Shown here piece by piece: positions 46,705 through 63,482 of a stretch of DNA of 64,000 nt. A program made the position numbers and the translations under genes. A model generated the notes under the pieces. The model was not told the origin of the DNA. It saw nothing but the letters and a program-made list of their open reading frames with translations, and did no database searches. The stretch is from positions 12,935 to 76,934 of the forward strand of contig JAITIA010000140.1 of the NCBI GenBank assembly GCA_031279695.1, written 5' to 3'. The stretch comes from Prevotellaceae bacterium (GTDB taxonomy: Bacteria > Bacteroidota > Bacteroidia > Bacteroidales > UBA932). Position 1 is the stretch's first letter, and each line of letters opens with the position of its first letter.

Positions 46705-46902
46705 ATAAATTATCTTTTTAAAATTTCAATCTGCGAAATTACATATTTTTTTGTTTCCAACCAAATAGTTTTTTTAATTTATTATTAATCAGACTTTTCT
46801 TTACGCGATTTTTGGACGGGAAACGCTGAACCGACAGTGGAATTTTTACGATTGGAAAACATTTTTTTGATTTTTGAATTAAAAGACCATCGTCATAAAT
46901 CA

Positions 46903-51452: not shown

Positions 51453-51487
51453 TAAAATATTTGGAAACTTCTAATAATTGATATTAA

Positions 51488-51830
51488 TGCCCTGCGGGTG
51501 GGGTGTCAAAAATATGAATAGGGACAAAAATATCTTCTTCCCTTTTATTGATGACAAAACCCTTATTTTTGAAAGATCCCTTAGTAGCCAAATTACACGC
51601 AACAAACAACCCTTATTCCCTTATTAAATCGATTATAATAAGGGAATAAGGGAGGAGAAATCCTTGTCCGATACTACTAAGGGAGCCTTGGGAAATAAGG
51701 GTTTTTATCCCGATTAAAACCGGAAAGAATCTTTTAAACCTCGACCCCATATTTTTTACACCCCACCCTGCGGGCAACAAGATTCGACAAGTTTGATTGC
51801 CCGGATTGCCCGCAGGCATCAATATCAATA
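51488..51830. repeat. Highly palindromic structured element, MITE-like, with terminal GC-rich inverted repeats (gccctgcgggtggggtgt / acaccccaccctgcgggc) and internal nested inverted repeats
   Basis: The ends carry tggggtgt and acacccca as inverted partners next to direct ccctgcggg. Internal pairs: cccttattcccttatt with aataagggaataaggg, and cccttagtag with ctactaaggg. A further gcccgcagg copy lies near 51810. No ORF. Confidence 0.55.
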
Positions 51831-52013: not shown

Positions 52014-52175
52014 GGCAAAAAATCCTGCCCTTACCGTCCAAAAATCTCAGTTCAATCCGAAAATCGAAGCAAAAAATTCGCCTGATCTGCAAAAAAAATG
52101 CATCTGAAATACCATTGATTTTCAGCGAAATCAAAAAAAATATTTTTTTGTTCAAAAAAAGTTTTGTACTTTTGC
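52014..52175 (+). repeat. Copy A of a three-copy intergenic repeat family (about 165 bp core) carrying a TTTG / TACTTTTG promoter at its 3' end
   Basis: About 90% identical to 55792..55955 and 56785..56945. Shared core ccttaccgtccaaaaatc..atcgaagcaaaaaattcgc.tgatctgcaaaaaaatgcatctgaaatac.attgattttcagcgaaatcaaaaaaaatatttttttgttcaaaaaaagttttgtacttttg. Confidence 0.85.
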
Positions 52176-52235
52176 GGCGCGTTTCAGTGAGATATTGACG
52201 CGCCGCTAAATTGAAAGTATTTTATAAAGAAATTT

Positions 52236-52448
<213 letters not shown>

Positions 52449-52473: not shown

Positions 52474-52512
52474 CCCCACCGCAAAGTTTTGCATTGCGGC
52501 GGGGCTTTTTTT
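52474..52512 (+). terminator. Rho-independent terminator (ccccaccgcaa-agttttgca-ttgcggcgggg + T7)
   Basis: GC-rich 11-bp stem with one mismatch, followed by ttttttt. Confidence 0.7.
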
Positions 52513-52641: not shown

Positions 52642-53796
52642 ATGGGACTGTTAAACAGAAATTGGGACGGGAAAAATGCCGGCTCTCCGGATAACGGAAT
52701 TTTCGGATCGACCATATCGCGCGATCACGAGTCTGACGACGAAATGGTCTGGAAATATTCGTTCAGCAATGTAAAAAAGGGCGCAAAAATATTTGTCAAA
52801 CCCACACAACGCGCTATTTTACTGATTAATAATGAATATGTTTCGACAATCGAAGGCGGACAAACTTTTGATTTGTACGATTCGTCGAACATTCCGCTGC
52901 TTGGCGGGGTACTGAATTTTGCCACCGGTGGCGAAACGCCATACCCTGTGGATATTTGGTTTGTAAACGTCGAAACTCACCGCAACATGCTGTGGGCTAC
53001 CGGTAAAATGCATGTGCGGGATTGGGAAACCAATATTCCTGCAGAACTGTACTGCAACGGTTCGTGCGTTATCAAAATCAAAGATGTGGAACTCTTTTAC
53101 AAGACGTATATTGGCACTAAACATGGATTTTCGGTAACGGAACTGTATGATAATATGCGCAATATTATTAAAGAAGAGGTTATTGTGCATATTCTTGGGG
53201 CAATAGAAAAAGACCATATTCCGCTGTATGATTTTCAGGGCAATATGAGAAAATTCTCAACCGAGATAGAAGTCCTGCTTCAGTCCGAAGCATTCGACGA
53301 AAGAGGTATTGAACTGATTAAATTCGCAATAGGCGAAGTCGATTTTTCCGAAGAATTTAAAGAGGCAATCAAGGAATTGCGAACAAAGGAGAAATTTTAC
53401 AGTTCGGAAGCATATTTGCGCAAAGAGCAGTTTGAAATCATGAAACAGGCTGCCGCCAATCCGGGCGCAGGCGTCATGATGGGCGTGGGAATGGGCGCAG
53501 GAATGGGCGCGGGAATGGGACAATCAATGGGCAGCATGATGCAAAACGCAATGGGGTCGGTAAATCAGCAGAATGTGCCGCCGCCGCCGTTGCCTGCTCA
53601 GATATATGCCGTAATCAACGGAATACAGTCGGGACCGCTGAGTTTGGACGCCTTGCAGTCTAATATTCAGCAGGGATTAATCAACAAAGATACACTGGTT
53701 TGGAAACAGGGAATGACGGCATGGGTGGCGGCGGCTTCGCTGCCCGAACTGTCGGCTTTGCTTGGCGCTGTGCCACCGCCTCTTCCTCCGGTTTAA
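52642..53796 (+). CDS. SPFH/Band-7-like (Band_7_1, YdjI-like) protein with Gly/Met-rich linker and C-terminal DUF4339 (GYF-like) domain
   Basis: N-terminal region is collinear with B. subtilis YdjI (IFVKPTQRAILLINNEYVSTIEGGQTF vs IRPGQDAVFLNNGRVEGVF). It has a GVGMGAGMGAGMGQSMGSMMQNAMG linker. The C-terminus IYAVINGIQSGPLSLDALQ...LVWKQGMTAWVAAASLPEL is typical of DUF4339. Confidence 0.7.
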   Translation: MGLLNRNWDGKNAGSPDNGIFGSTISRDHESDDEMVWKYSFSNVKKGAKIFVKPTQRAILLINNEYVSTIEGGQTFDLYDSSNIPLLGGVLNFATGGETPYPVDIWFVNVETHRNMLWATGKMHVRDWETNIPAELYCNGSCVIKIKDVELFYKTYIGTKHGFSVTELYDNMRNIIKEEVIVHILGAIEKDHIPLYDFQGNMRKFSTEIEVLLQSEAFDERGIELIKFAIGEVDFSEEFKEAIKELRTKEKFYSSEAYLRKEQFEIMKQAAANPGAGVMMGVGMGAGMGAGMGQSMGSMMQNAMGSVNQQNVPPPPLPAQIYAVINGIQSGPLSLDALQSNIQQGLINKDTLVWKQGMTAWVAAASLPELSALLGAVPPPLPPV

Positions 53797-53831
53797 ACAA
53801 GTAAATATAAAATAATTAAATATTTATAAAC

Positions 53832-54566
53832 ATGAGATCTTTTAAAATTTTAAACTGTTTGATATTGGCGGTTACATTATCCGCCATTGCGGGGCTGTTC
53901 TTTTTGTTTGGTCCTGCCGAAAAAACTCTACCGTTTTATTTCAATCTGGGCTTTGCCTGTCTGATTGATGTCCTGTTTTTTTGCTCACTTTTTATTGTGT
54001 CGGGCAAGAAACATTACACGGTACAGGGTATTGCGCTTGCAAAACAGATAATGACTTACGGTCTGCTGTCCACAGTGTTAATACTGGGCTACAGTCTGAC
54101 GTCGTATTTTTACCCGATACCGTTTCCGTGGTATCTGGGTGCGGTTATTCTGCTGACTGTCATTTATTTCATCATTATTATCGTAACTTTTCAGGGAGGG
54201 CAGGTACAGCGTGAAACTGCGGAGCGTCTCAAACAAACAGGAGAGGCGAGCCGGAAATACACAAAGCAAATCCCTGATATACACGAATATTTTGTTGAAA
54301 CGATGAGCAAAAAAAATGCAGATCCGGCATACAGGGAAAGCGTGAAAAAGTCATTGAAAATATTGCACGAAACAGCCACTTTTGTTCCAACAAAACTCTA
54401 TGTCGAAAAGCCGGAATTAGCTCAAAATGTTTCTCGGCATTTTGAAGAACTTATGGCTGAAACAGGCAAAATTGTTCATTTGGAAGGCGATGCTCTGATC
54501 AAACAATTGGAAAATATCCATGCCACAGCAAAGCGTGTTACGAAATATATACAAAATAACAAATAA
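53832..54566 (+). CDS. Hypothetical 4-TM membrane protein with cytoplasmic helical C-terminal domain (YdjH-like position)
   Basis: Hydrophobic segments in the N-terminal 130 aa and a charged helical tail. Operon-like spacing with its neighbours. Confidence 0.6.
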   Translation: MRSFKILNCLILAVTLSAIAGLFFLFGPAEKTLPFYFNLGFACLIDVLFFCSLFIVSGKKHYTVQGIALAKQIMTYGLLSTVLILGYSLTSYFYPIPFPWYLGAVILLTVIYFIIIIVTFQGGQVQRETAERLKQTGEASRKYTKQIPDIHEYFVETMSKKNADPAYRESVKKSLKILHETATFVPTKLYVEKPELAQNVSRHFEELMAETGKIVHLEGDALIKQLENIHATAKRVTKYIQNNK

Positions 54567-54610
54567 ATTATTATTATTATTATTTACAAACAAATAAAAT
54601 TATTATTTTT

Positions 54611-55696
54611 ATGGACAGTAATGTGTTAAAATTAATTCAGTTGAAGTGTGCAAACTGCAATTCTACCTTATCAAGAGCAGACAAGTTTGAAACACAAATT
54701 AAATGTCCGTACTGCGGTACGGTGAATGAAGTTACGGGAACTATGCATCAGGATGTTGCTGCACCCGAGCGGATTATCCTCTTCAAAACTCAGGAAAATG
54801 ATTTTGATACTGGAATCTGCAACTTCTTTGTTGATCAAGATTATGCGGTGAACGATATTTTCGAGAAAGTACAACTCGAAAATGTTACGCCAATTTATCT
54901 TCCGATGTATCTGTACGAGGGTCGATACGATGCAACCTATTCGTGTTCAGTCGGTCAGAAGGAAACACAACTAAGAGTAGGCTCGGACTTCTCGGGCAAC
55001 AAAACCGTCAAAGAAAAGACGGTTACCAAATGGACGCCGTATAATGGCACGGCAAGAGACAATTATGCCTTTCTCAGTCTGGCTTTTGAAGGCAAAGAAA
55101 TTACCCCCGAACTGGCTGAATGGACAAGATCGTTCCCTTACGAGCCTGTGTATGGACAAAAGTTCGACATCAACCTGCTGTCGGGCAAAGGTTTCCAAAT
55201 TCTCCCTCACAATTTGGACAGGGAAGCAACCTGGCATAAATGGGGCGTCTCAACTCTTGAATATCTGTCGGAACAACTTGCTTATTCGCAAATTCCGGGA
55301 GGTCAGCAAATAAGAGATTTCCGGTCGAACTGCAGTTACGACCCGAAACACGATGGACGACTGTTTTTAGTACCATTCTGGTTTGTTTACTATTACTATG
55401 ACAACAAACAGTTTTTTGTGCTGATGGATGGCTTGGGCAAAAATATACACGGATCGACGCCAATAGACGAAAAACGTGTAAAGGATGTCCGAAATCTGGA
55501 AAAACTTGGAAAATGGGGCTTGTGGATAGCTATCATTTTGGGTATCGTGTTGATGTCGGTGCACTTCCTGACCGCGCTTATTGCGTTTGTTGTGATATGG
55601 CTGGGCTTGAAATTTTTCACAAGATGGAAAGTTGGAAGTATCATTAAAACAGCAAGAAACATCAGAACGGAAGCATATAACAAGCTTTCGCATTAA
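54611..55696 (+). CDS. Zinc-ribbon protein (CxxC..CxxC) with C-terminal TM anchor (YdjG-like)
   Basis: N-terminal LKCANCNSTL...IKCPYCGTVNEV zinc ribbon. C-terminal TM helix WGLWIAIILGIVLMSVHFLTALIAFVVIWLGL. Confidence 0.6.
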   Translation: MDSNVLKLIQLKCANCNSTLSRADKFETQIKCPYCGTVNEVTGTMHQDVAAPERIILFKTQENDFDTGICNFFVDQDYAVNDIFEKVQLENVTPIYLPMYLYEGRYDATYSCSVGQKETQLRVGSDFSGNKTVKEKTVTKWTPYNGTARDNYAFLSLAFEGKEITPELAEWTRSFPYEPVYGQKFDINLLSGKGFQILPHNLDREATWHKWGVSTLEYLSEQLAYSQIPGGQQIRDFRSNCSYDPKHDGRLFLVPFWFVYYYYDNKQFFVLMDGLGKNIHGSTPIDEKRVKDVRNLEKLGKWGLWIAIILGIVLMSVHFLTALIAFVVIWLGLKFFTRWKVGSIIKTARNIRTEAYNKLSH

Positions 55697-55791: not shown

Positions 55792-56017
55792 TGGCAAAAA
55801 ATCCTGCCCTTTACCGTCCAAAAATCTCAGTTCAATCCGAAAATCGAAGCAAAAAATTCGCATGATCTGCAAAAAAATGCATCTGAAATACTATTGATTT
55901 TCAGCGAAATTAAAAAAAATATTTTTTTGTTCAAAAAATTTTTGTACCTTTGTGCTTGTGATTTATCTGAGATATAACAGATAATTAATTGAATAATAAG
56001 ATTTAAACGTAAATAAA
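55792..56017 (+). repeat. Copy B of the intergenic repeat family, with promoter TTTG...TACCTTTG (55944-55951) and a 65-bp extension shared with copy C
   Basis: Aligns with copies A and C. The extension tgatttatctgagatataacagataattaattgaataataagatttaaacgtaaataaatgg is identical in B and C. Confidence 0.85.
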
Positions 56018-56784: not shown

Positions 56785-57014
56785 CGCAAAAAACCTTCCC
56801 CCCTTACCGTCCAAAAATCTAATTTCAGAACCAAATCGAAGCAAAAAATTCGCATGATCTGCAAAAAAATGCATCTGAAATACTATTGATTTTCAGCGAA
56901 ATCAAAAAAAATATTTTTTTGTTCAGAAAAAGTTTTGTACTTTTGTACTTGTAATTTATCTGAGATATAACAGATAATTAATTGAATAATAAGATTTAAA
57001 CGTAAATAAATGAG
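56785..57014 (+). repeat. Copy C of the intergenic repeat family, with promoter TTTG...TACTTTTG (56938-56945)
   Basis: Aligns with copies A and B across the whole core and the B-type extension. Confidence 0.85.
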
Positions 57015-63377: not shown

Positions 63378-63443
63378 TAATGGGGGGCTGTGTAAAAAGT
63401 ACGGTAGAGTAGAGCGGGAAGACTACTGTTAGTCTTCCCCCCT

Positions 63444-63482
<39 letters not shown>

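Follow-up and report, generated by a model that had tools for sequence, protein, structure and literature searches.

The window analysed here, a stretch of 64,000 nucleotides (nt) from contig JAITIA010000140.1 of a Prevotellaceae bacterium, encodes three neighbouring proteins of 384, 244 and 361 amino acids (aa), called P1, P2 and P3 in the following, with spacings of 35 nt between the genes of P1 and P2 and 44 nt between those of P2 and P3 (Table 1). An earlier note on this DNA, made from the sequence alone, had described three co-directional genes at this place, and its coordinates match open reading frames (ORFs) on the forward strand exactly. That these are genuine genes and did not arise as ORFs by chance is indicated by homologues in the databases (345 for P1 and 92 for P3) and by their recurrent adjacency in unrelated contigs; their GC content (0.40–0.46) lies around the window mean of 0.42. 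The locus represents a lineage-specific form of a known module, the pspA-ydjGHI (pspA-samGHI) system of Bacillus subtilis, and not a new system: it is PspA-less and TPM-less, and carries a new family of partner proteins with four transmembrane (TM) segments. Its most plausible role, which we consider rather likely, is that of a three-gene operon for an SPFH assembly beneath the membrane, representing the Bacteroidota form of the SamG/SamI module without an operon-encoded PspA.

Table 1 Features of the P1-P2-P3 locus. Positions are those of the window, counted from its first nucleotide; residues are those of the respective protein.
Feature	Position	Strand	Basis
Terminator-like hairpin with T-run, 5' of P1	52483..52508	+	Consensus scan, pattern match only
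P1, soluble SPFH protein, Band_7_1 family with GYF_2 tail, YdjI/SamI homologue, 384 aa	52642..53796	+	ORF, Pfam, BLASTP
Band_7_1 (SPFH) domain of P1, residues 42-245	52765..53376	+	Pfam PF13421
Gly/Met-rich low-complexity linker of P1, residues 275-305	53464..53556	+	Read off sequence
Proline-rich motif PPPPLP of P1, just 5' of GYF_2	53578..53595	+	Sequence
GYF_2 domain of P1, residues 322-370	53605..53751	+	Pfam PF14237
C-terminal proline-rich motif PPPLPP of P1	53773..53790	+	Sequence
P2, 244 aa, membrane protein of an unnamed family with four TM segments; helical C-terminal domain predicted to be cytoplasmic	53832..54566	+	ORF, hydropathy
P3, YdjG/SamG family, one zinc ribbon, beta-rich core and C-terminal hydrophobic anchor, 361 aa	54611..55696	+	ORF, hhalign, AlphaFold2
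Zinc ribbon of P3, residues 10-44, C13/C16/C32/C35 (CxxC...CxxC)	54638..54742	+	Pfam Zn_ribbon_Com
YdjG-type core domain of P3, residues 45-286	54743..55468	+	Conserved motifs, AlphaFold2 secondary structure
Hydrophobic block of P3, 35 residues, 303-337	55517..55621	+	Hydropathy; AlphaFold2 helical hairpin
Perfect 10-bp inverted repeat (GGCACAGGGA...TCCCTGTGCC), 14 nt past the P3 stop codon	55710..55750	+	Sequence

The individual proteins were compared to those of the Bacillus system. A primer in Scholz et al. (PMC8581546) supplied the initial 30 nt of ydjG from B. subtilis, and an exact-match scan with these gave the locus in four close Bacillus relatives. In Bacillus stercoris (locus L010) the gene order is PspA (227 aa), YdjG (341 aa), YdjH (253 aa) and YdjI (323 aa), and in the Bacillus proteins Pfam recognises PspA_IM30 in PspA, only zinc ribbons in YdjG, TPM_phosphatase in YdjH, and Band_7_1 followed by a C-terminal zinc ribbon in YdjI. 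On sequence evidence, P1 and P3 are true relatives of YdjI and YdjG, respectively, and the middle protein is not a relative of YdjH.

The match of P1 to Band_7_1 (PF13421) is strong (E 1.1e-23, 84.4 bits with a cutoff of 24) and covers profile positions 9–205 of 211, and BLASTP aligns P1 with Bacillus YdjI across the SPFH domain (221 aa, E 5e-12). The collinearity of P1 with YdjI that the earlier note had claimed was confirmed by these matches and extends to the linker, as the Gly/Met-rich segment of P1 is equivalent to a G/M/N/Q-rich stretch preceding the zinc ribbon of YdjI, where Scholz et al. described a low-complexity region (PMC8581546). Neither P1 nor YdjI contains a hydrophobic segment, as judged by the lack of any 19-residue window with a Kyte-Doolittle mean of ≥1.6. 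At the C-terminus, YdjI ends in a zinc finger (Zn_ribbon_3/Zn_Ribbon_1) that P1 does not have; P1 ends instead in a GYF_2 domain (PF14237; E 4.2e-16, 58.9 bits with a cutoff of 25.8) flanked by proline-rich motifs. This domain had been reported under the name DUF4339, which we take to be the earlier name of GYF_2, and in comparison with YdjI it does stand where the zinc ribbon would be. The tail is however not a local peculiarity: among the matches listed for P1 (120 of the 345 homologues), which come from several phyla, every protein combines Band_7_1 with GYF_2 and has a proline-rich stretch after GYF_2, commonly GAVPPPLPP, and 117 of the 120 have one before it as well. The same architecture was published in 2007 (Balaji & Aravind, PMC2034487). 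The sole sequence relative of P1 in the PDB is the GYF domain of GltJ (7z3c, E 7.6e-4), and GltJ is also its sole match in NCBIfam; with 32.5 bits and a cutoff of 450, P1 is not a GltJ.

P3 was identified as a YdjG homologue by profile comparison. A family profile of 28 sequences aligned with Bacillus YdjG over 309 columns (hhalign probability 99.9%, E 1e-31), and an independent hhalign run gave 100% and an E-value of 1.8e-48, which together with the C-terminal hydrophobic block bears out the earlier description of a zinc-ribbon and TM protein related to YdjG. The zinc ribbon is the only part of P3 recognised by Pfam (Zn_ribbon_Com, E 6.3e-8), and its four cysteines are invariant in the 28 family members; P3 has one such ribbon, whereas Bacillus YdjG and proteobacterial members have two. 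The core carries the conserved motifs PERIIPF, YLPMYLYEG and LVPFWFVYY..DG.G. In an AlphaFold2 (AF2) model of high confidence (predicted local distance difference test, pLDDT, 90.1), helices span residues 287–315 and 319–360, and the hydrophobic block, a probable membrane anchor, is modelled as a helical hairpin. According to the predicted topology the bulk of P3 should be cytoplasmic, since the protein lacks a signal peptide, begins with the zinc ribbon and carries its hydrophobic anchor at the C-terminus. The core has no Pfam model, and structure searches returned no solved relative: Foldseek against the PDB gave nothing below an E-value of 0.088, with template-modelling scores of ≤0.12. The YdjG core has been described as YpeB-related and NTF2-like (Ravi et al.), which our structure searches neither confirmed nor refuted.

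The AF2 model of P3 further shows a very long beta-hairpin at high confidence (residues 93–157, about 30 residues per strand). The only Foldseek matches, all of them non-significant, were to stems of beta-pore-forming toxins and to ring-forming proteins (SpoIIIAG, MS-ring), and these probably reflect the long hairpin and are no evidence of a relationship.

The middle gene had been called YdjH-like. Bacillus YdjH is a TPM protein (TPM_phosphatase, PF04536; E 1.1e-23) with an N-terminal signal or TM segment and one late TM segment, whereas P2 lacks the TPM domain and shows no match in Pfam, NCBIfam or PADLOC. Direct comparison of P2 with YdjH gave a BLASTP E-value of 0.18, restricted to a TM stretch, and an hhalign probability of 1.1% for a P2 profile of 20 sequences, so the assignment does not hold. 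The hydropathy peaks of P2 lie at residues 9–27, 39–57, 67–85 and 102–120, and the charge distribution (positive-inside rule) predicts an N-in/C-in orientation, which would place the helical C-terminal half (121–244) in the cytoplasm. An AF2 model from the single sequence was poor (pLDDT 63, predicted template-modelling score 0.34) and was used solely to describe P2 as all-helical. A word-seeded database search with P2 matched only P2 itself; orthologues were gathered by position from the loci described below and then confirmed with hidden Markov models (HMMs). They share 11–38% identity, the same architecture and adjoining Band_7_1 and P3 genes, between which they are located in all loci except a permuted one (L093), and the named members all belong to Bacteroidota. 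P2 is thus a separate 4-TM family in the slot held in Bacillus by the TPM protein YdjH.

The gene neighbourhoods of the families were surveyed with HMMs built from fetched sequences, using 80 metagenome loci together with loci that were looked up; about 70 of these were evaluable, and the counts are rough and not dereplicated. A Band_7_1 gene adjoins a YdjG-family gene in about 60 of the roughly 70 loci, that of P3 included. The triad Band_7_1, P2, YdjG was found in 17 loci (counting the window), a Band_7_1-YdjG dyad in about 40, the order PspA, YdjG, Band_7_1 in two, and YdjG followed by Band_7_1 in one locus with uncovered upstream sequence, while about 10 loci encode a YdjG-family protein without an adjacent Band_7_1 gene. 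The three genes are conserved as neighbours, and the triad order is kept with different flanks in a Flavobacteriaceae metagenome-assembled genome (MAG) and other contigs. The closest relative of P1 keeps this order too, although the P3 homologue is there extended to 670 aa, and the closest relative of P3 shows a cyclic permutation with P3, a Band_7_1 gene with a SHOCT tail, and a P2-family gene. The extended homologue (L095:2331-4343) has around 310 additional C-terminal residues and is followed by a gene for a Gly-zipper protein.

The pair is not confined to Bacteroidetes: a Rhodospirillaceae MAG and Enterovibrio norvegicus provide named dyads, and the pair is also present in many contigs from metagenomes. 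The YdjG-type family is very large: among 1.84 billion cluster representatives, 8,838 match at E≤1e-3, and at E≤1e-30 the number is 1,458. In seven dyads (L035, L038, L039, L040, L051, L059 and L088) the middle slot is taken by a DUF4019 protein that has a signal peptide, is exported and measures some 145 aa, and the survey thus shows the middle position to vary by lineage between TPM, P2, DUF4019 and nothing. The Band_7_1-YdjG pair is the conserved core across phyla; lineages differ in PspA, in the gene at the middle position and in the tail with which the SPFH protein ends. These distribution data lead to a composite picture in which PspA and TPM are a Firmicutes-type addition to the Band_7_1-YdjG core.

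By analogy with B. subtilis, P3 and P2 would dock P1 on the inner side of the cytoplasmic membrane, where P1 would oligomerise and scaffold or restrain the P2/P3 membrane complex as part of membrane homeostasis or stress sensing. In B. subtilis, YdjG and YdjH are needed for membrane recruitment of the soluble YdjI (Scholz et al. 2021, PMC8581546), and a preprint proposed that SamI restrains a SamGH sensor complex, with PspA being dispensable for the phenotype (Baur et al. 2026, bioRxiv 10.64898/2026.02.06.704340). This reading is supported by the combination of a soluble P1 with the membrane proteins P2 and P3 and by the short gene spacings given above. By analogy with the GYF domain of GltJ, the GYF_2 tail of P1 probably binds the PPPPLP and PPPLPP motifs that flank it, either on neighbouring subunits or in cis, which would result in cross-linking or autoinhibition; alternatively, it may bind some other proline-rich partner.

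Several points weigh against this reading. The functional steps proposed for the locus all rest on analogy, and the experiments are confined to B. subtilis. YdjH was the main contact of both YdjI and PspA in two-hybrid assays in B. subtilis, and as P2 is unrelated to YdjH, the anchoring logic may differ. The partnership is furthermore not obligatory, since some P3 relatives (such as L030, located after folK on a 3.46-Mb contig) and some Band_7_1-GYF_2 genes (such as L099, in a Gemmataceae MAG) were found standing alone. Finally, PspA occurs in some Bacteroidota, where it sometimes adjoins band-7 genes (Popp et al.).

The C-terminal tails of the SPFH proteins proved to be interchangeable. Among 52 Band_7_1 proteins encoded beside a YdjG-family gene, 30 end in HTH_17, eight in GYF_2 (P1 included), five in SHOCT and two, from PspA-linked operons of the Firmicutes type, in a zinc ribbon, with none detected in the remainder. 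The HTH_17 tail scores above the Pfam cutoff and sits at the extreme C-terminus, for instance at residues 337–384 of 385; proteins with this excisionase-type DNA-binding tail are encoded at L063:5476-6630, L037:5654-6784, L074:4989-6095 and 27 other loci. Such a tail on an SPFH scaffold protein suggests that the membrane may serve to sequester a regulator. It is therefore conceivable, though in our judgement doubtful, that the Band_7_1-YdjG pair is an ancient, PspA-independent device that reports the state of the membrane to the cytoplasm in several phyla. The SPFH subunit would then carry an exchangeable output tail, the membrane partners would sequester and release a regulator instead of simply forming a scaffold, and the middle gene would provide a lineage-specific input module: the 4-TM P2 in Bacteroidota, TPM in Firmicutes, and the exported DUF4019 protein in some metagenome lineages, largely from soil. 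If so, the P2 proteins of Bacteroidota would constitute a novel component for sensing.

Another possibility, which we regard as unlikely, is that the triad works together with a PspA encoded elsewhere in the genome. P1 and P3 are true homologues of YdjI and YdjG, PspA foci in Bacillus require YdjI (PMC8581546), and it has been suggested that abbreviated band-7 operons may act with PspA encoded elsewhere (Ravi et al.). On the other hand, the middle gene is not YdjH/TPM, whereas the TPM protein is the conserved partner of PspA according to the same authors. The earlier note had stated that PspA is absent at the locus, and this holds for the 64-kb window: a phmmer search of its 443 six-frame ORFs with two PspA queries and YdjH gave nothing at E≤10 for either PspA (PF04012) or TPM. 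Nor was PspA found near the triad elsewhere, in the flanks fetched for L001–L008 (3.6–8 kb on each side), and it is adjacent in just two of the approximately 70 evaluable loci. Of the PspA-linked Band_7_1 proteins, the two with examinable tails (those of L056 and Bacillus, the latter being YdjI) end in a zinc ribbon, which no PspA-free locus has and which is replaced here by GYF_2; in L053, the other PspA-linked locus, the Band_7_1 gene runs off the contig end, placing its tail outside the sample. The SamI phenotype in Bacillus is moreover independent of PspA (bioRxiv 10.64898/2026.02.06.704340).

A role in phage response had also been proposed, and the surroundings of the triad could suggest a stand-alone anti-phage or abortive-infection module, with an SPFH protein and membrane partners placed in a variable region of toxin-antitoxin cassettes and repeats. 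Two antitoxin-PIN pairs lie directly downstream, a repeated promoter-like element flanks the triad, and in L006 a gene for a DUF87 ATPase is found two genes upstream. We nevertheless consider such a role very unlikely, as the searches bearing on it were negative. PADLOC-DB 2.0 contains no family matching P1, P2 or P3 at E≤0.001; P1 and P2 had no match, and the best one for P3 (0.011, to PDC-M14A) covered only the zinc ribbon. Searches of 2.9 million viral contigs and of 50,697 phage records yielded no relative of P3. The flanks elsewhere vary from locus to locus and mostly encode ordinary metabolic, envelope or housekeeping proteins without a recurrent defence gene, the adjacency to antitoxin-PIN pairs is specific to this contig, and the GC content of the triad is near the window mean. 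The reading in which the locus is a prophage remnant and P3 the phage Mu Com protein, a DNA-binding transcriptional regulator of the Com family, has practically nothing to commend it: NCBI and JGI so name the identical protein and the Zn_ribbon_Com match is genuine, but this match spans a 35-residue zinc ribbon out of 361 aa, the remainder being YdjG core and membrane anchor, neither phage genes near P3 nor phage or viral relatives were found, and the full-length homology to YdjG refutes the name, so that the public annotation is hereby corrected.

With regard to the boundaries of the locus, the hairpin upstream of P1 is a probable 5' boundary of the transcription unit. The inverted repeat past P3 is a possible 3' boundary; it has no T-run, and the terminator scan made no call there. 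The exact Bacteroidetes promoter pattern TTTG-N17-23-TAnnTTTG was not found directly upstream of P1. When the flanking non-coding DNA was compared to Rfam, the only match at the triad flanks was a sub-threshold one to the Moco riboswitch at the nested inverted repeats described below (18.7 bits with a gathering score of 36, E 0.77), which was read as a probable chance match.

The flanking DNA contains a direct repeat of about 165 nt on the forward strand, with copies at 52015-52178 (about 460 nt upstream of the triad), 55795-55957 and 56787-56950, and a probable fourth copy on the reverse strand near 46806-46822. Its 3' end, TTTG-N16-TACnTTTG, resembles the Bacteroidetes -33/-7 promoter, and the repeat has no Rfam match. 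The second and third copies share approximately 75 nt more (89–96% identity), each just 5' of one of the antitoxin-PIN pairs. These type II toxin-antitoxin-like pairs, both on the forward strand, encode a 77-aa protein with a PIN protein (PF01850; 56060-56691) and a Phd/YefM-like protein with a PIN_3 protein (PF13470; 57164-57852), in a region of 29.5% GC where the window mean is 42%. A perfect (GA)20 repeat at 52377-52416, between the first repeat copy and the hairpin at 52483-52508, is contained in short ORFs of either strand; it may be a remnant or a tract that varies by strand slippage. Further upstream, after a gene for a Gfo/Idh/MocA oxidoreductase, nested intergenic inverted repeats occupy 51481-51783, with outer arms of 36 nt (51481-51516 and 51748-51783, 81% complementary) and inner arms of 32 nt (51556-51587 and 51674-51705, 84%). 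A group II intron match (Rfam RF00029; 54.4 bits with a gathering score of 40, E 2.5e-8) lies at 63404-63482 on the reverse strand.

Experiments on modules of this kind have been performed in B. subtilis only, where the module is usually described within the Psp response. The present comparison separates two layers, a conserved core of Band_7_1 and YdjG-family proteins and the lineage additions PspA, TPM, P2, DUF4019 and the SPFH tail, which agrees with the SamGHI phenotypes that were observed without a need for PspA (bioRxiv 10.64898/2026.02.06.704340). Defined here are the unnamed 4-TM family of P2 and the large YdjG-type family, whose core was without a Pfam model or solved structure. The Band_7_1-YdjG pairing is widespread, while in the literature searched it is discussed for Firmicutes only. 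For work on Bacteroidota, this provides a candidate membrane-homeostasis operon; no long-standing question is opened by it.

The arrangement resembles the classical SPFH-partner operons, stomatin-NfeD, HflK/C-FtsH and YqiK-YqiJ/YuaF, in which an SPFH gene stands beside the gene of a membrane protein dedicated to it, and in which this partner is assumed to be organised or restrained by the SPFH oligomer. The classical SPFH proteins, which are members of PF01145-type families, however carry a membrane anchor themselves, and their partners NfeD, FtsH and YqiJ are unrelated to YdjG or P2. With the ZnR-linker-GYF switch of GltJ from the Myxococcus gliding machinery, the locus shares a GYF_2-type domain of bacterial origin and the occurrence of a zinc ribbon within the same system. 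In GltJ, the GYF domain was shown to bind AglZ at a proline-rich sequence (Attia et al. 2024, PMC11135422). Unlike in GltJ, zinc ribbon and GYF domain are here located on separate proteins (P3 and P1), and MglA, AglZ and the gliding context are absent. Also comparable are the SPFH/Band 7 proteins with GYF, flanking proline-rich stretches and a tendency to adjoin genes for TM proteins in Balaji & Aravind 2007 (PMC2034487), which have exactly the P1 architecture including these neighbours, and the combination of Band_7_1 with SHOCT in Eberhardt et al. 2013 (PMC3581485). In the available text of these two papers, the neighbouring TM protein is not identified as a YdjG homologue, and neither a 4-TM family like P2 nor a link to SamGHI is described.

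The closest known system is pspA-samGHI of B. subtilis. In both operons the SPFH protein belongs to Band_7_1, is soluble, and has a low-complexity linker as well as a small adaptor domain at its C-terminus. The YdjG-family protein has zinc-ribbon sequence at the N-terminus, then a conserved core and finally an anchor at the C-terminus. Each operon also encodes a third membrane protein, and the sizes are comparable (384, 244 and 361 aa here, 323, 253 and 341 aa in Bacillus). They differ in that pspA is missing from the locus described here, and in the gene order, which is I-x-G here and G-H-I in Bacillus. YdjG has two zinc ribbons and a single TM segment, P3 only one ribbon and, as its anchor, a hydrophobic hairpin of 35 residues, and the tail of P1 is a GYF_2 domain flanked by proline-rich motifs instead of a zinc ribbon. 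The third protein is a predicted cytoplasm-facing 4-TM protein and not the TPM-domain protein YdjH, the TPM domain of which lies between two TM segments and is thus probably extracytoplasmic, in contrast to the predicted cytoplasmic domain of P2.

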